16,029 bases of DNA. Source: a virus. The stretch lies in UHGV virus genome UHGV-0264118. One strand, 5' to 3'. Position numbers and translations under genes: made by a program. The notes beneath the pieces are model-generated. The model worked only from the letters and a program-made list of their open reading frames with translations, was not told where the DNA came from and searched no databases. Shown here piece after piece: positions 5,764 to 15,084 of this stretch (its first letter is position 1; each line of letters opens with the position of its first letter).

Positions 5764-6303
5764 ATGCAACCAATTACATACCAACAGACTAGCGGATTTA
5801 CCCCGGCTGCGGTGATAAATCGTTCTCAAACAAAACAGGCGCCAGGCCACGAAAAAATCCGTGATGCCGTTCGCGCCTGGTCGGCTGCAGATAATCAGGA
5901 TGTTGTTGCCGCACTCATTGTGAATGAGTATCGGGAGCAGGGCGGCGGCACCATCGATTTCCCTGATGATGTCAGCCGTGCACGCCAGAAGCTGTTCCGC
6001 TTCCTCGATAACAAATTCGATTCTGAAAAATACCGAAATAACGTGCGTGAACTGACCCCGGCAATTCTGGCGGTACTACCGCTGGAATATCGCGGTTACC
6101 TGGTTGAGCAGGATAGCTTCATGGCCAGGTTGGCTGAAATGGAAAAGGAACTCAGTGAGGCAAAACAGGCTGTCATTCTCAACGCACCACGCCACCAGAA
6201 ACTGAAGGAAATTGGTGAAGGTATTGTATCGATGTTTCGTGTGGACCCAGATCTGGCTGGTCCATTGATGGCGATGGTTACTACCATGCTGGGGGCGATA
6301 TGA
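5764..6303 (+). CDS. YdaT-like or CII-like regulatory protein (family assignment tentative)
   Basis: 179-aa ORF directly downstream of the cro-like gene, in the position of cII/ydaT. Motifs EYREQGGG and LTPAILAVLP recall YdaT-family proteins, from recollection only. Confidence 0.5.
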   Translation: MQPITYQQTSGFTPAAVINRSQTKQAPGHEKIRDAVRAWSAADNQDVVAALIVNEYREQGGGTIDFPDDVSRARQKLFRFLDNKFDSEKYRNNVRELTPAILAVLPLEYRGYLVEQDSFMARLAEMEKELSEAKQAVILNAPRHQKLKEIGEGIVSMFRVDPDLAGPLMAMVTTMLGAI

Positions 6304-6389
6304 CAGGTTCAGAAATGGCGAAAGCCGGTCTGCTGGAACAGAACCGACTTTCAGGTGCAAATCGTAACACACTCATTGCGGGAGGAATT

Positions 6390-7319
6390 ATGGCAAACAC
6401 TGCTGAGATATTCAATTTTCCAGTGCCGGATGCGGCACAAAAGGAGCCGCGCGTGGCAGATCTCGATGATGGTTATACGCGCATTGCAAATGAGTTGCTG
6501 GAAGCTGTGATGCTGGCCGGATTAACACAGCACCAGCTTCTGGTCTTCCTGGCTGTCATGCGCAAAACATATGGCTTTAATAAAAAACTGGATTGGGTGA
6601 GCAACGAGCAACTGTCCGGATTGACCGGGATATTACCGCACAAGTGTTCTGCTGCAAAAAGTGTTCTGGTAAAGCGTGGGATTTTGATTCAGAGCGGGCG
6701 GAATATCGGTATTAATAATGTGGTCAGTGAATGGTCAACATTACCCGAATCAGGTAAGAAAAATAAAGTTTACCTGAAAGAGGTAAATTTACCTGAATCA
6801 GGTAAGAAAAGTTTACCCAAATCAGGTAAAGGCGTTTACCCGAATCAGGTAAACACAAAAGACAAACTAACAAAAGACAATATAAAACCTTTTTCGTCCG
6901 AGAATTCTGGCGAATCCTCTGACCAACCAGAAAACGATCTTCCTGTGGTGAAACCAGATGCTGCAATTCAGAGCGGCAGCAAGTGGGGGACAGCAGAAGA
7001 CCTGACCGCCGCAGAGTGGATGTTTGACATGGTGAAGACCATCGCACCATCAGCCAGAAAACCGAATTTTGCAGGGTGGGCTAACGATATCCGCCTGATG
7101 CGTGAACGTGACGGACGTAACCACCGCGACATGTGCGTGCTTTTCCGCTGGGCATGCCAGGACAACTTCTGGTCCGGTAACGTGCTAAGTCCGGCCAAAC
7201 TCCGCGACAAGTGGACCCAACTCGAAATCAACCGTAACAAGCAACAGGCAGGCATGATAGCCAGCAAACCAAAACTCGACCTGACAAACACTGACTGGAT
7301 TTACGGGGTGGATTTATGA
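6390..7319 (+). CDS. O: Replication initiator O (lambda O-like)
   Basis: From the ATG at 6390 (MANTAEIFNFPVP..., GGAGG Shine-Dalgarno 4 nt upstream). The C-terminal ~150 aa (..YSSENSGESSDQPENDLPVVKPDAAIQSGSKWGTAEDLTAAEWMFDMVKTIAPSARKPNFAGWANDIRLMRERDGRNHRDMCVLFRWACQDNFWSGNV..) is essentially lambda O. The N-terminal iteron-binding domain is related but divergent. Confidence 0.9.
   Translation: MANTAEIFNFPVPDAAQKEPRVADLDDGYTRIANELLEAVMLAGLTQHQLLVFLAVMRKTYGFNKKLDWVSNEQLSGLTGILPHKCSAAKSVLVKRGILIQSGRNIGINNVVSEWSTLPESGKKNKVYLKEVNLPESGKKSLPKSGKGVYPNQVNTKDKLTKDNIKPFSSENSGESSDQPENDLPVVKPDAAIQSGSKWGTAEDLTAAEWMFDMVKTIAPSARKPNFAGWANDIRLMRERDGRNHRDMCVLFRWACQDNFWSGNVLSPAKLRDKWTQLEINRNKQQAGMIASKPKLDLTNTDWIYGVDL
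6741..6853. repeat. Replication origin iterons inside the O gene
   Basis: Five copies of about 17 bp with consensus TACC(C/T)GAATCAGGTAA(G/A) at approximately 6742, 6771 (degenerate), 6790, 6814 and 6837. Followed by an A-rich tract at 6854-6890, as in ori-lambda. Confidence 0.75.
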
Positions 7320-8017
7320 AAAACATCGCCGCACAGATGGTTAACTTTGACCGTGAGCAGATGCGTCGGATCGCCAACAACATGCCGGAACAGTACGACG
7401 AAAAGCCGCAGGTACAGCAGGTAGCGCAGATCATCAACGGTGTGTTCAGCCAGTTACTGGCAACTTTCCCGGCGAGCCTGGCTAACCGTGACCAGAATGA
7501 ACTGAACGAAATCCGCCGCCAGTGGGTGCTGGCTTTTCGGGAAAACGGGATCACCACAATGGAACAGGTTAACGCTGGAATGCGCGTAGCCCGTCGGCAG
7601 AATCGACCATTCCTGCCATCACCCGGGCAGTTTGTCGCCTGGTGCCGGGAAGAAGCATCCGTTACCGCCGGGCTGCCAAACGCCAGCGAGCTGGTTGATA
7701 TGGTTTACGAGTATTGCCGGAAGCGCGGGCTGTATCCGGATGCAGAGTCTTATCCGTGGAAATCAAACGCGCACTACTGGCTGGTTACCAACCTGTATCA
7801 GAACATGCGGGCCAATGCGTTGACTGACGCGGAATTACGGCGCAAGGCTGCCGATGAACTGTCCTGTATGACCGCACGAATTAACCGTGGTGAGGCTATA
7901 CCTGAACCAGTAAAACAACTTCCTGTCATGGGCGGTAGACCTCTAAATCGTGCACAGGCTCTGGCGAAGATCGCAGAAATCAAAGCTAAGTTTGGGCTGA
8001 AAGGAGCAAGGGTATGA
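7316..8017 (+). CDS. P: Replication protein P (DnaB helicase loader)
   Basis: 233-aa translation MKNIAAQMVNFDREQMRRIANNMPEQYDEKPQVQQVAQIINGVFSQLLATFPASLANRDQNEL... is near-identical to lambda P. Start overlaps the O stop (ATGA). Confidence 0.95.
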   Translation: MKNIAAQMVNFDREQMRRIANNMPEQYDEKPQVQQVAQIINGVFSQLLATFPASLANRDQNELNEIRRQWVLAFRENGITTMEQVNAGMRVARRQNRPFLPSPGQFVAWCREEASVTAGLPNASELVDMVYEYCRKRGLYPDAESYPWKSNAHYWLVTNLYQNMRANALTDAELRRKAADELSCMTARINRGEAIPEPVKQLPVMGGRPLNRAQALAKIAEIKAKFGLKGARV

Positions 8018-8316
8018 CGGGCAAAGAGGCAATTATTCATTACCTGGGGACTCATAAGAAATTCTGTGCGCAGGACGTTGCCGCGGTAACAGGCGCAACG
8101 GTAACCAGCATAAATCAGGCTGCGGCTAAAATGGCACGGGCAGGTCTTCTGGCTATCGAAGGTAAGGTCTGGCGAACGGTGTATTACCGGTTTGCTACCA
8201 GAGAAGAACGGGAAGGAAAGGTGAGCACGAATCTGATTTTTAAGGAGTGTCGCCAGAGTGCCGCGATGAAACGGGTATTGAGGGTATATAAAAGAACATC
8301 AATGGGTACACAATGA
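8014..8316 (+). CDS. ren: Ren protein
   Basis: 100-aa translation MTGKEAIIHYLGTHKKFCAQDVAAVTGATVTSINQAAAKMARAGLLAIEGKVWRTVYYRFATREEREGK... matches lambda Ren. Start overlaps the P stop. Confidence 0.85.
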   Translation: MTGKEAIIHYLGTHKKFCAQDVAAVTGATVTSINQAAAKMARAGLLAIEGKVWRTVYYRFATREEREGKVSTNLIFKECRQSAAMKRVLRVYKRTSMGTQ

Positions 8317-8383
8317 TGAAACAGGTGAGTTGAGTTCAAACTGTAGTACAATTCTCTCCAGTTTGAACAGGAAAGAATATTCT

Positions 8384-8716
8384 ATGAACCCTTATATTTA
8401 TCTTGGTGGTGCAATACTTGCAGAGGTCATTGGTACAACCTTAATGAAGTTTTCAGAAGGTTTTACACGGTTATGGCCATCTGTTGGTACAATTATTTGT
8501 TATTGTGCATCATTCTGGTTATTAGCTCAGACGCTGGCTTATATTCCTACAGGGATTGCTTATGCTATCTGGTCAGGAGTCGGTATTGTCCTGATTAGCT
8601 TACTGTCATGGGGACTTTTCGGCCAACGGCTGGACCTGCCAGCCATTATAGGCATGATGTTGATTTGTGCCGGTGTGTTGGTTATTAATTTATTGTCACG
8701 AAGCACACCACATTAA
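8384..8716 (+). CDS. emrE: SMR-family multidrug efflux transporter EmrE
   Basis: 110-aa translation from the ATG at 8384 (MNPYIYLGGAILAEVIGTTLMKFSEGFTRLWPSVGTIICYCASFWLLAQTLAYIPTGIAYAIWSGVGIVLISLLSWG...) matches E. coli EmrE with its four transmembrane helices. The predicted ORF starts earlier at 8330. Confidence 0.95.
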   Translation: MNPYIYLGGAILAEVIGTTLMKFSEGFTRLWPSVGTIICYCASFWLLAQTLAYIPTGIAYAIWSGVGIVLISLLSWGLFGQRLDLPAIIGMMLICAGVLVINLLSRSTPH

Positions 8717-8747
8717 AAATAATTTGTTTCTAAACGACTAAAATATG

Positions 8748-8780
8748 GAGGCTCTTATATTTATATGAGCCTCGTTTTAT
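8748..8780 (+). terminator. Rho-independent terminator downstream of emrE
   Basis: Perfect 7-bp stem GAGGCTC (8748-8754) / GAGCCTC (8767-8773) with a 12-nt loop, followed by GTTTTATGCTTTTT. Confidence 0.6.
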
Positions 8781-8972
8781 GCTTTTTGTTAATGTCTTTA
8801 TTTTTTTATGTATTCTTTTGTGCTTTCAAGATTATGGCGTAAGAAAATTGCAATACGATTATTGTTGTATATTCAAGATAATGTGACCTTAATTGTCTTT
8901 TTAAATAAAAATTAAACAAAAATTATATCCCACCACTAAGGTTTATAAAAGCATACGTTAGCAGGTGTCACC

Positions 8973-10499
8973 ATGAAAAAAGCCATAGCATATATGCGAT
9001 TTTCATCACCAGGTCAGATGTCTGGCGACTCATTAAACCGACAGAGAAGACTTATTGCTGAATGGTTAAAGGTAAATAGTGATTATTATCTTGATACCAT
9101 AACATATGAAGATTTAGGATTAAGTGCATTCAAAGGAAAGCATGCACAATCAGGAGCTTTTTCGGAATTTTTAGATGCTATAGAGCATGGTTATATATTG
9201 CCAGGAACTACATTGTTAGTTGAAAGTCTGGACAGACTTTCAAGAGAAAAAGTCGGTGAAGCGATTGAACGTCTGAAATTGATTTTGAATCACGGTATTG
9301 ATGTTATAACTCTTTGCGACAATACAGTCTATAATATTGACTCTTTGAATGAGCCATATTCATTAATAAAAGCCATACTTATAGCACAAAGGGCAAATGA
9401 AGAAAGCGAGATAAAGTCAAGTCGGGTTAAATTATCATGGAAGAAAAAACGGCAGGATGCACTGGAATCAGGTACGATTATGACGGCGTCTTGTCCGAGA
9501 TGGCTCTCCTTAGATGACAAAAGAACGGCTTTTGTTCCAGACCCCGACAGGGTGAAAACTATTGAGCTAATTTTTAAACTCAGGATGGAAAGGCGCTCAT
9601 TGAATGCAATAGCCAAGTATTTAAATGATCATGCTGTAAAGAATTTCTCAGGAAAAGAAAGTGCATGGGGACCTTCTGTAATTGAAAAATTATTAGCGAA
9701 TAAAGCTCTGATAGGTATATGCGTACCTTCATATCGTGCAAGAGGTAAAGGAATAAGTGAAATCGCTGGCTATTATCCCAGAGTCATATCAGATGATTTG
9801 TTTTACGCTGTACAGGAAATTCGGTTGGCACCTTTTGGTATTAGCAATAGTAGCAAAAATCCTATGTTGATAAATCTACTTCGAACAGTTATGAAGTGCG
9901 AGGCTTGTGGTAATACCATGATTGTTCATGCGGTATCTGGAAGTTTGCATGGCTATTATGTTTGTCCGATGAGAAGACTGCATCGATGTGACAGGCCATC
10001 AATAAAGAGAGATTTGGTTGATTATAATATCATTAATGAGTTGCTTTTTAATTGTAGTAAAATCCAACCAGTTGAAAACAAGAAAGATGCTAATGAAACT
10101 TTAGAGTTGAAAATTATTGAGCTCCAGATGAAAATTAATAATTTAATTGCTGCATTATCTGTTGCGCCTGAAGTTACCGCTATAGCAGAAAAAATCAGAG
10201 TATTAGATAAGGAATTACGAAGGGCTTCTGTATCATTAAAAACTTTGAAGAGTAAAGCGGTGAGTTCACTTGGTGATTTTCATGCTATTGACTTAACCAG
10301 TAAAAATGGGCGAGAGCTATGTCGTACACTTGCCTATAAAACATTCGAAAAAATCATAATCAATACAGATAATAAAACCTGTGATATCTATTTTATGAAT
10401 GGCATTGTTTTTAAACACTATCCTTTAATGAAAACAATATCCGCCCAGCAGGCGATAAGTACTCTCAAATATATGGTTGATGGTGAGGTTTATTTTTGA
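8973..10499 (+). CDS. ybcK: Large serine recombinase (YbcK-like)
   Basis: 508 aa. N-terminal resolvase-type catalytic motif AIAYMRFSSPGQ (Y-x-R-x-S nucleophile). C-terminal Cys cluster (CEACGN...CPMRRLHRCD) and a coiled-coil segment typical of large serine recombinases. AGGTG Shine-Dalgarno upstream. Markedly AT-rich gene. Confidence 0.85.
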   Translation: MKKAIAYMRFSSPGQMSGDSLNRQRRLIAEWLKVNSDYYLDTITYEDLGLSAFKGKHAQSGAFSEFLDAIEHGYILPGTTLLVESLDRLSREKVGEAIERLKLILNHGIDVITLCDNTVYNIDSLNEPYSLIKAILIAQRANEESEIKSSRVKLSWKKKRQDALESGTIMTASCPRWLSLDDKRTAFVPDPDRVKTIELIFKLRMERRSLNAIAKYLNDHAVKNFSGKESAWGPSVIEKLLANKALIGICVPSYRARGKGISEIAGYYPRVISDDLFYAVQEIRLAPFGISNSSKNPMLINLLRTVMKCEACGNTMIVHAVSGSLHGYYVCPMRRLHRCDRPSIKRDLVDYNIINELLFNCSKIQPVENKKDANETLELKIIELQMKINNLIAALSVAPEVTAIAEKIRVLDKELRRASVSLKTLKSKAVSSLGDFHAIDLTSKNGRELCRTLAYKTFEKIIINTDNKTCDIYFMNGIVFKHYPLMKTISAQQAISTLKYMVDGEVYF

Positions 10500-10610
10500 G
10501 TAATAATCACTTTTTCAACCGTGCTATAGTAAGAAAGTTAGGTAAGTACAATAAAATTATCTATCCTGAACGAAGCGTCCTGAGCTATGGTTTTACTATA
10601 GAGACTGCCA

Positions 10611-10934
10611 ATGGATGCTGGCGTTCTCGTTCTAGCAGTTCAACAATACCCAATCACAAAACAATTCACTGATAACGAACTTTGCACACTCGCCTGGTTA
10701 TGGCGAGCAGGGAATGTGATGTTAATTACCTACCAGAACGTTACTCCTCTTCTTCAGGTTGCGGAGCATCGTGAAGCTGGTCGCTTCACTTCTATCGAGC
10801 AAGAATATCCCCAGATACTCAATAAGGCACAGGCAATCCTTGCCAGAGAAACGGCACATGTAAAATTCCGGCCGTGGCAGGATGATAAGTGGAGTCGAGT
10901 TTTGCCGCATTTACGTTCGGATCGATTACAGTAG
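10611..10934 (+). CDS. Hypothetical protein (107 aa), coding status uncertain
   Basis: ORF with a weak ribosome-binding site. No recognisable family. Flanked upstream by a 9-bp inverted repeat. Confidence 0.3.
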   Translation: MDAGVLVLAVQQYPITKQFTDNELCTLAWLWRAGNVMLITYQNVTPLLQVAEHREAGRFTSIEQEYPQILNKAQAILARETAHVKFRPWQDDKWSRVLPHLRSDRLQ

Positions 10935-11395: not shown

Positions 11396-11752
11396 ATGGA
11401 TACAATTATCACATGGATGGGAGATCGTCTGTTGGGGTGGATAACAAACAAATCCGATCTGCGGCAGAGGGCAATCACTGGATTAACTCCTGCGATTTAT
11501 TCAACAATTTTATATACTGAAAAATTAAAACGTGGTGAGCCTAATAACCCAAACGAAGAAGAAAAACTTTATAGGCTTTGGTATGAAGCGTCTTCCCAAG
11601 TCGTAGACTTTGATCGAGAGCTGGCTAAAAGATGTTTAGATAAATCAGAATATTGGCTTCATTCTGAATTATATAGCCCTGAGAAAGTTGGAGAGCTAAA
11701 CATTTCTTTGGTTGGTATGAAGGCAACGCTTGAAGGAATAAAGCACAATTAA
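11396..11752 (+). CDS. Hypothetical protein (118 aa)
   Basis: AT-rich ORF (MDTIITWMGDRLLGWITNKSDLRQRAITGL...) with an AAGGG Shine-Dalgarno about 9 nt upstream. No recognised family. Preceded by a ~430 bp non-coding GC-richer region. Confidence 0.45.
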   Translation: MDTIITWMGDRLLGWITNKSDLRQRAITGLTPAIYSTILYTEKLKRGEPNNPNEEEKLYRLWYEASSQVVDFDRELAKRCLDKSEYWLHSELYSPEKVGELNISLVGMKATLEGIKHN

Positions 11753-11841
11753 AACCTTTGATTTGCGATAATCAACTCGCCATAATCATGTCATCGGAGC
11801 CTGAACAACTCCGGTGACTTCTGCGCTAAACGGGGACGTTT

Positions 11842-11943
11842 ATGCGCACACACAATCCAAACTCTCTTCTCCCTCCACAGATGCAGAAATGCACCTGCGA
11901 TATATTGTATCCAGCGTTTGACCTCTGCGGAGGTGAAGCGTGA
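11842..11943 (+). CDS. ylcH: Small protein YlcH-like (33 aa)
   Basis: Translation [33 protein letters not shown]. Its stop overlaps the GTG start of ybcN (GTGA). Below the 60-aa cutoff of the ORF track, found by manual translation. Confidence 0.5.
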
Positions 11944-12395
11944 ATCTCCCACAAGATGGCATCAAATTACATCGCGGTAACTTCACCGCTATCGGTCGGC
12001 AGATCCAGCCTTATCTGGAGGAGGGCAAATGCTTTCGCATGGTGCTTAAACCGTGGCGTGAGAAACGCAGTCTTTCCCAGAATGCACTCAGCCACATGTG
12101 GTACAGCGAAATCAGTGAATACCTCATCAGCAGGGGTAAAACGTTCGCTACTCCAGCTTGGGTAAAAGATGCTCTCAAACACACATATCTCGGTTATGAA
12201 ACCAAAGACCTGGTTGATGTCGTAACCGGTGATATCACCACTATCCAGTCGTTACGCCATACCTCCGATCTTGATACCGGAGAGATGTATGTCTTCCTGT
12301 GTAAGGTTGAAGCCTGGGCGGTGAATATTGGCTGCCACCTGACTATTCCGCAGAGCTGCGAGTTCCAGCTGCTCCGCGACAAGCAGGAGGCGTAA
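11940..12395 (+). CDS. ybcN: NinB/Orf-family recombination protein (YbcN-like)
   Basis: 151 aa from a GTG start with a GGAGGTG Shine-Dalgarno 5 nt upstream. Motif [19 protein letters not shown] parallels lambda NinB RSLDQNRKLW. Confidence 0.8.
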
Positions 12396-14001: not shown

Positions 14002-15084
14002 TTAGAACTGGTAAACCATACCTACAGCAACGATATCATCGGTAGCAACGCCAGATGCTTTCGTGAAATCGCTCTTATCAATCAGGTTGATTTTGTAGTC
14101 AACAAAAGTGGACATATTTTTGTTGAAGTAATAGGTTGCACCTACATCAACATATTCAACCAGGTCCTGATCACCCCAAACACCCAAGTCTTTTCCTTTA
14201 GAATGCAGGTAAGCAACGGATGGACGCAGGCCGAAGTCGAACTGATATTGTGCAACAGCTTCGAAGTTTTGTGCTTTGTTGGCAATATGGTTATTACCAA
14301 AAACAGTCATGTTCTGGGTTTCAGAATAGGTGGTGGCCAGATAGATGTTGTTCGCATCATATTTCAGACCAGCTGCCCATACTTCAGCATTTTGACCAGA
14401 AGCATTCAGACCGTTGTTACCGTAGATAACCTGATTATTAGTGCGATCAGATTTAGCATAGGTTGCACCCACGCCGAATCCTTCATACTCATAAGTAGTT
14501 GAGAAACCGAAACCATCGCCATTAGCTTCAGTTACTTCATTTCGGTCATTTTTGCCCTGATACTGAGCTGCAAAGTTCAGGCCATCAACCAGACCAAAGA
14601 AGTCGTTGTTACGATAAGTTGCAACACCTGTGGTGCGACCAGTCATGAATACATCTGTTTGGGTCCAGGTATCGCCACCGAATTCTGGCAGAACGTCAGT
14701 CCACGCACCGATGTCGTATGCTACACCGTAGTTACGGCCGTAATCGATTGAGCCGTAGTCACCGAATTTCAGGCCTGCAAATGCAAGACGGGTTTTGTCT
14801 TTGGAGGAACCTTGAGATTCAGCGCGGTTGCCTTTGAATTCATATTCCCACTGACCGAAACCAGTCAGTTGATCGTTGATTTGGGTTTCACCTTTGAAGC
14901 CAAGACGGGCATAAGTAGTATCACCATCATCTGCATCATTAGAGGAGAAGTAGTGCTTAGCATTAACTTTCCCGTACAGATCCAGCTTGTTACTGTCTTT
15001 ATTATAAATTTCAGCTGCCTGAGCAGACATCGCCATCAGTACTGATGCAGCTACAGCAGAAATTGCCACTGTTAATTTTTTCAT
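14002..15084 (-). CDS. nmpC: Outer-membrane general porin (OmpC/OmpF family), NmpC-like
   Basis: 360 aa. Signal peptide [23 protein letters not shown]|AEIYNKD. Beta-barrel porin hallmarks and C-terminal ...VAVGMVYQF. Convergent with Q, between Q and the lysis genes. Confidence 0.9.

Follow-up and report, generated by a model that had tools for sequence, protein, structure and literature searches.

Lambdoid prophages of Escherichia coli carry a locus that has long been annotated in the cryptic prophage DLP12 of strain K-12 as emrE-ylcJ-ybcK. The same order of genes is annotated in O157:H7, ST131 and many other strains, as found by megablast against 5426 complete E. coli genomes. In the phage Perceval (strain LF82) the same slot holds ren, emrE, a gene annotated "Large serine recombinase", an alpha/beta hydrolase gene and ninB, and Perceval emrE has been described as an inducible moron (PMC9928086). 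Here we describe this locus in a 16,029-nucleotide stretch of the virus genome UHGV-0264118 (hereafter the window), which belongs to a DLP12/Perceval-type lambdoid prophage. emrE and ybcK, the latter coding for a 508-aa large serine recombinase (LSR), lie between ren and the nin genes, as an earlier note on this DNA had it in both coordinates and content. The region is the known emrE-ybcK locus of DLP12. We consider it probable that it is a DLP12-type accessory block occupying a cargo hot spot between ren and ninB/ybcN, with YbcK as an orphan recombinase, with a nearby 9-bp inverted repeat that is not its site, and with neither inversion nor excision going on.

DLP12, Perceval and the window share the genes, their order and the slot: ren, emrE, ylcJ and ybcK are followed, after a further stretch, by ybcN, ninE, ybcO, rusA, ylcG, quuD and a porin gene. 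The DNA identity between the window and the K-12 emrE-ylcJ-ybcK locus is about 97%. The differences concern the cassette downstream of ybcK, which is unlike that of either relative, and ylcJ, which is frameshifted in the window and annotated as such in an identical locus (L001). The window prophage also keeps exo/bet, cI, O and P, unlike DLP12, which we take to have lost them. The ybcK unit was found in 1427 of the 5426 genomes, i.e., in about a quarter, as one copy or at most two per genome, and YbcK is encoded with 98% identity by 12 cultured lambdoid Escherichia phages. Perceval, the sole carrier phage checked, has its own tyrosine integrase and excisionase at the canonical place. Coordinates of all features are collected in Table 1.

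Table 1. Features of the emrE-ybcK region and its surroundings, in positions of the window
Feature	Position	Strand	Basis and remarks
exo/bet, cI, then O, P and ren	O 6300-7319; P 7316-8017; ren 8014-8316		upstream part of the window prophage; P, PF06992
ren	8014-8316	+	PHROG 142 Ren-like, 1.8e-41; annotated "protein ren" in related loci; final backbone gene before the cargo
emrE unit (coding sequence 8384-8716 plus 77-bp leader)	8307-8724	+	edges by blastn against XH990
ybcK unit	8725 to ~10605		starts with the terminator hairpin
ybcK leader	8725-8972	+	frameshifted ylcJ remnant 8765-8915; 19-nt direct repeat
Intrinsic terminator-like hairpin with U tract	8748-8779	+	minimum free energy -13.6 kcal/mol, z = -3.2; directly 3' of emrE; opens the ybcK unit
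ybcK, 508-aa large serine recombinase	8973-10499	+	Pfam domains; PHROG 95 integrase, 4e-120
3' flank of the ybcK unit	10500-10611	+	holds both 9-bp arms; sharp divergence between K-12 type and window type
5'-truncated antirepressor-like gene (ant')	10611-10934	+	P22AR C-terminal domain, Pfam PF10548, 1.1e-15; PHROG Ant
118-aa open reading frame, function unassigned	11396-11752	+	PHROG 12412; window-type cassette; 15 of 80 IMG/VR loci
Right edge of the slot, then ybcN (NinB-like, coding sequence 11940-12395)	11757-12395	+	realignment from 11757; Pfam NinB; annotation
ybcN (NinB-like), ninE, ybcO, rusA, ylcG, quuD, porin gene			order 3' of the cargo block

LSRs act on a cognate pair of attachment sites, one of which usually lies beside the recombinase gene, and their coiled coil serves the control of att-site recombination. 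YbcK shares the catalytic serine domain, the recombinase domain, the Cys4 zinc ribbon and the inserted coiled coil with the LSR integrases of Listeria A118/LI, Bxb1, PhiC31 and TP901-1. Pfam recognises Resolvase (PF00239, 7.7e-19), Recombinase (PF07508, 2.3e-14) and Zn_ribbon_recom (PF13408, 8.2e-08). The AlphaFold (AF2) model, with a predicted local distance difference test score of 78.5, consists of a catalytic domain, a long helix, a recombinase domain, a zinc ribbon and a two-helix coiled coil (helices at residues 368-397 and 402-428). Foldseek aligned it end-to-end with 9dxd, a serine integrase-DNA complex (2.8e-18), and with PhiC31 (4e-15), Bxb1 (7e-14) and A118 (1.4e-10). The similarity at the level of sequence is very low: phmmer found no match below E = 1e-3 among PDB sequences, and the sole match, weak but collinear, is to the C-terminal domains of the A118 integrase. 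YbcK also differs from these integrases in that its gene lies in the nin region, away from the phage attachment site, and in being carried, in Perceval, along with a tyrosine Int/Xis pair.

Among 19 full-length relatives (41-61% identity) the residues R9, S11, D87, R88 and R91 of the catalytic domain and the zinc-ribbon cysteines C309, C312, C331 and C339 are invariant. All 508 codons are intact in five lineages, with a ratio of nonsynonymous to synonymous rates (dN/dS) of 0.05-0.11 at synonymous divergence (dS) of up to 0.17. Taken from the alignments and the model, YbcK is a complete large serine recombinase maintained by strong purifying selection. Loss of the catalytic serine, which according to the earlier note would have refuted its reading, is not seen, since S11, the other catalytic residues, the fold and the codons are all intact. 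A 58-aa open reading frame over the ybcK stop (10496-10672) was considered as a recombination directionality factor and rejected: it has no family match and spans a recombination joint, and is therefore not a conserved gene.

Serine invertases such as Gin of Mu, Cin of P1, Pin of e14 and Hin are about 190 aa long and end in a helix-turn-helix. Their catalytic domain is of the same resolvase/invertase superfamily as that of YbcK, and some relatives of YbcK share with gin, cin and pin a place directly behind tail fibre and tail-fibre-assembly genes. YbcK differs from them by its 508 aa with LSR domains and by the lack of conserved crossover sites or inverted alleles at its locus. The earlier note had pointed to a perfect 9-bp inverted repeat behind ybcK as a possible site of action. 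The repeat is present exactly where it was placed (CTATAGTAA at 10524-10532 and TTACTATAG at 10593-10601), but it does not exceed chance. Perfect 9-bp inverted pairs with a spacer of 3-100 bp number 13 in the whole window against 7.2 expected, and three in the AT-rich 1.9 kb against 1.7 expected; a 150-bp segment chosen beforehand gains such a pair in 3.5% of trials. Folding of the single-stranded region is no stronger than that of its shuffles (z = 0.01). Nor is the pairing conserved: the left arm is CTATGGTGA in K-12-type loci and CTATGGTAT in those of the O157 and ST131 types. We therefore rejected the repeat as a YbcK site on four grounds: its frequency at chance level, its lack of conservation, the absence of a folding signal and the absence of an inverted allele.

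The last of these was sought with an artificially inverted 60-bp spacer as a query. Its best full-length match in the 5426 genomes (93.5%) was the native orientation with mismatches, so no inverted-spacer allele was found among them. Nor was an inverted downstream cassette seen in 80 IMG/VR prophage loci, which have one orientation throughout. As far as assemblies can show, inversion of the adjacent cassette is refuted. That YbcK is an invertase or switch flipping this cassette or the 60-bp spacer via the repeat is thus hardly credible, even though a perfect repeat does lie less than 100 bp from the ybcK stop and the region downstream does differ between strains; the architecture of the protein is that of an LSR and the breakpoints given below are those of replacement.

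This downstream region is variable, as had been proposed: the 80 loci divide into four cassette types, and the ybcK unit has just two different joints on its right. In K-12 the cassette consists of 281 bp and ybcL-ybcM, in Perceval and ST131 of an alpha/beta hydrolase gene on the opposite strand, and in the window of the truncated antirepressor gene and the 118-aa open reading frame. Alignment and blastn place the start of homology between ant' and a 202-aa O26 gene at 10612, which corresponds to a point about 290 bp inside the latter. The breakpoints between the types are at 10538 (versus K-12), 10565 (versus O157) and 10782 (versus Perceval and ST131) and do not fall on one common site. The variation is replacement rather than inversion. 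The other side of the unit is constant: emrE is present in every locus that reaches upstream of the ybcK leader, and the left junction with emrE is identical in all loci examined.

The window ybcK allele is itself recombinant. An identity profile over 8724-10474 shows that 8724-9700 is identical to K-12, including 100% identity over the first 700 bp of ybcK, while the 3' part is 4-6% diverged. Since the profile is a mosaic with a breakpoint within the gene, homologous exchange inside ybcK joins different flanks. The match to H88, which stops inside ybcK, was rejected as a site-specific junction because it is an IS3 insertion. In E. coli C325 (L019, 2910-8018), a DLP12 remnant adjoining intD/argU has been rearranged by IS elements: two IS3 copies surround ren'-emrE-ybcK, and the fusion makes the ybcK reading frame slightly longer.

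The interval between ren and ybcN is wider than the ybcK unit and behaves as a slot. In all compared prophages with other cargo, homology to the window stops at 8280-8307 and picks up again at 11757. Alternative cargo between the same breakpoints includes a YajG lipoprotein cassette (N169) and a HEPN gene with a full ant-like gene (O26). As the same flanks hold unrelated cargo in other prophages, the interval can be regarded as a general cargo hot spot. The G+C content is 34.8% in the ybcK unit and 39.7% in the emrE unit, compared with 50.6% and 49.1% in the flanking backbone. Conserved flanks around unrelated cargo, deviant G+C content and an own terminator, all present here, are marks of such hot spots and of morons. 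In keeping with the suggestion that the AT-rich recombinase gene had been acquired horizontally, both emrE and ybcK are foreign cargo in the ren-nin interval, which holds other cargo elsewhere. Candidate defence genes were seen in the equivalent early/nin region of other prophages, namely a gene for a 646-aa SIR2_2 protein (L013, 5755-7695) and one for a HEPN-domain protein (O26, L007, 4831-5247). PADLOC defence models gave no match for YbcK, the ant fragment, the 118-aa product, EmrE or Ren, and assignment of the block to a defence system was rejected on this ground.

emrE lies within an open reading frame of 128 codons starting with TTG (8330-8716), but its true start is the ATG at 8384, which gives a product of 110 aa. 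The product matches NCBIfam NF042984 over residues 1-110 of 110 (239.6 bits, cut-off 226) and Pfam PF00893 (3e-35), and it has Glu14, the membrane-embedded residue of EmrE (position 14 of the translation MNPYIYLGGAILAE). In the O157 and ST131 lineages, compensatory substitutions maintain the stem of the terminator-like hairpin that follows. The hairpin falls just inside the ybcK unit and is missing from the emrE copy at the fliE locus. emrE is a stand-alone moron with its own terminator behind it. The untranslated leader of K-12 ybcK was reported to hold a Rho/NusG-dependent terminator, t_ybcK (PMC4150792). In the window, the leader with its ylcJ remnant also contains a 19-nt direct repeat TTGTnnnTTCAAGATnATG (8818-8836 and 8865-8883, 47 bp apart), which K-12 has too.

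Small AT-rich blocks that combine an LSR gene with a gene for drug efflux or resistance are also found with TnpX of Tn4451, TndX of Tn5397 and Ccr of SCCmec. Here, emrE stands outside the only candidate mobile unit, whose boundary is at 8724/8725, and emrE-ybcK showed neither element ends nor a circular form nor several target sites. The K-12 and window types have no terminal inverted repeat, conserved dyad or shared core at the unit ends beyond shuffles (p = 0.86, 0.68, 0.23 and 0.28 in tests for inverted and direct repeats). When emrE joined straight to ant' was used as a query, none of the 5426 genomes matched at ≥80% coverage, and the precise excision product emrE|ant' was rejected.

An arrangement without ybcK does exist. 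In 2627 genomes emrE is joined to ybcL-ybcM where the K-12 type has 2096 bp; the emrE unit of this copy, in a prophage remnant between fliE and yedK, is 92% identical to that of the window. The emrE-ybcL copy is 8-12% diverged, has 17 unmatched bp at the junction and lies inside a decayed remnant missing many other genes. Deletion explains it equally well, because the copy is diverged and other genes have been deleted from the same remnant; judged by these sequences, insertion and deletion of the ybcK unit look the same. The 17-bp filler was tried as a leftover of the unit and rejected, having no match at ≤5 mismatches. The nested integrative element suggested earlier keeps its 2.1-kb ybcK-containing difference from emrE-ybcL, but not a clean junction, att-like repeats, an excision junction or a variable left end; likewise, the proposed comparison across E. 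coli did yield a single presence/absence contrast, but an ancient and untidy one with no precise junctions. The remnant itself (XH990, L004, 5001-8000) is DLP12-like, 88-92% identical to DLP12 and present in about half of complete E. coli genomes. It runs from emrE through ybcL and ybcM to short fragments from upstream of ybcN, from the end of quuD and from upstream of nmpC.

Full-length relatives of YbcK were found across Enterobacterales. As integrases do, several adjoin host DNA at prophage ends: the Atlantibacter homologue (L009) lies 540 bp from the 3' end of ssrA, the Erwinia one before lepA and the Ewingella one before an aldehyde dehydrogenase gene. In two genera the homologue starts 256-260 bp past the yedK/SRAP stop (L023, 9741-10001; L026, 9745-10001), with mobile DNA (umuDC/umuC, prophage tail genes) on its other side; the spacers are unalignable, and the spacer after yedK/SRAP may be a recurrent attachment site for YbcK-type LSRs. 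The Yersinia homologue follows tail fibre genes and an autotransporter gene beside P2-like tail genes. As the host DNA edge and the tail-fibre end are the usual positions of integrases, YbcK likely derives from an integrase module, to judge from this gene context. Of 17 homologue loci, L009 is the only one with a tRNA-type target (ssrA) nearby; none was found in the 16 others. No conserved motif emerged from the flanks, which are unalignable upstream and downstream except within the closest pairs.

Further homologues are located in the early/nin region of other lambdoid prophages (L013, L022, L037, L102 and L104). In L013 the 5' end of a DUF1367 gene is copied directly on both sides of the recombinase and small cargo (82-86% identity, 2980 bp spacing), and in L037 the 3' part of P occurs in direct partial copies around the recombinase (72-75% identity, 2935 bp spacing). 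L013 and L022 have a common left module end with different flanks behind it, while L009, from a prophage end, and L013, from a nin region, have only the gene and 68 bp upstream in common. Clean att junctions in L013 were rejected, as 33 unique bp lie between the DUF1367 fragment and the shared module. Such joints fit both pseudo-site joints made by the recombinase and ordinary illegitimate-recombination scars of mosaic lambdoid phages, and the junctions are not clean enough to choose between the two.

Several of these observations speak for mobility of the ybcK unit (8725 to ~10605; 2.1 kb in K-12) as a past or present self-inserting LSR mini-element, which would have inserted once between emrE and ybcL and on a separate occasion into an antirepressor gene, its relatives inserting similar 2-3 kb cassettes into nin-region genes. 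The empty emrE-ybcL junction, the 5'-truncated ant gene abutting the unit in the window type, the diverged direct gene copies in L013 and L037, the shared module end of L013 and L022 and the minimal common part of L009 and L013 would all follow. We nevertheless hold this to be unlikely. The junctions are untidy in both the empty site and L013, the unit ends carry no repeats beyond chance, the left emrE junction is invariant in E. coli with two right junctions only, no genome has more than two copies, and the emrE|ant' product is absent; the empty site is as well explained by deletion, and partial-gene scars also arise by illegitimate recombination among mosaic lambdoid phages. Alternatively, YbcK could be a working second integrase for the whole phage, with attP beside ybcK, an alternative bacterial site and early expression after infection. 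The position of its relatives at the ends of several prophages, the full LSR architecture including the coiled coil, the strong purifying selection and the co-orientation of ybcK with the early operon agree with this, but ybcK never adjoins chromosomal DNA in the 1427 genomes and 80 IMG/VR loci. All loci that are long enough show emrE upstream and a phage cassette followed by ybcN downstream, and the prophages sit at different sites beside their own integrase genes (gal-bio, icd, argU). As the leader terminators would in addition block ybcK expression, we regard a second integrase as quite improbable.

A non-rearranging role, e.g., in DNA binding or regulation, in interference with other phages or in host stress, would account for ybcK remaining intact beside emrE even in heavily decayed prophages. 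Overexpression of ybcK raised and its deletion lowered sabinene tolerance in BL21(DE3) (PMC7181518), and the hot spot elsewhere holds the candidate HEPN and SIR2 defence genes (O26 and L013). The sabinene phenotype was reported in a single study and lacks a mechanism, no PADLOC defence model was matched, and the family-wide invariance of all catalytic residues argues for catalysis as the target of selection; we consider such co-option very improbable. A broader speculation, rather unlikely in our view, is that YbcK-family LSRs form a clade of their own, made up of solo recombinase genes moving among temperate phages of Enterobacterales and joining their own flank to pseudo-sites in phage or host DNA. 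They would thereby make truncated-gene joints and partial duplications (ant', DUF1367' in L013, P' in L037) and give rise to, or move, small cargo blocks in nin regions and at the ends of prophages.

We thus favour an accessory block in a cargo hot spot with an orphan recombinase. The block would have been passed on within a single lineage of E. coli lambdoid phages and reshuffled there by homologous recombination. In the lysogen, ybcK would be insulated by the Rho-dependent terminator of its leader (PMC4150792) and by the emrE terminator hairpin just upstream; given its co-orientation with the O-P-ren-nin genes, it is probably expressed on N-antiterminated early transcripts. The protein may perform conservative att-type recombination between putative sites of about 40-50 bp, as an orphan second recombinase presumably derived from an integrase module. 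Some points weigh against this explanation. The catalytic role of YbcK is read from its family, since no att site, recombination directionality factor or substrate was found, and no report of its recombination activity was found in the literature searched. Strong purifying selection fits poorly with a mere relic and implies that some function is exercised, and the sabinene tolerance phenotype (PMC7181518) does not point to recombination. Both the 2.1-kb difference from emrE-ybcL and the diverged partial gene duplications beside the homologues in L013 and L037 could reflect recombinase-mediated insertion, and rare or induced rearrangements escape complete assemblies.

The locus as such is a re-discovery of a long-annotated K-12 locus, and the inverted repeat and inversion that had drawn attention to it fail. 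The puzzle is that an intact and strongly constrained LSR is present in a quarter of E. coli genomes, as well as in viable lambdoid phages including at least one with a working tyrosine integrase. Its sites, once defined, would explain why phages keep a second recombinase, and could give genome engineering a new serine integrase of enterobacterial origin.

Some minor observations concern the surroundings of ybcK and its homologues. An intact 360-aa ompC/nmpC-like porin gene (14002-15084, minus strand) is located downstream of quuD in the window, as in the Perceval and ST131 prophages. In a Citrobacter koseri contig (L100, 5145-10300) the homologue stands beside a 555-aa gene with a faint match to Pfam Shufflon_N (PilV-type); a 324-nt direct repeat (68% identity) spans the homologue, with genes for TraD and MobA close by. 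The setting could be a plasmid or an integrative and conjugative element with a variable pilin region. In Lonsdalea britannica the homologue is followed, after about 630 bp, by a gene for a small resolvase-family protein of 185 aa (L035, 12154-12711).

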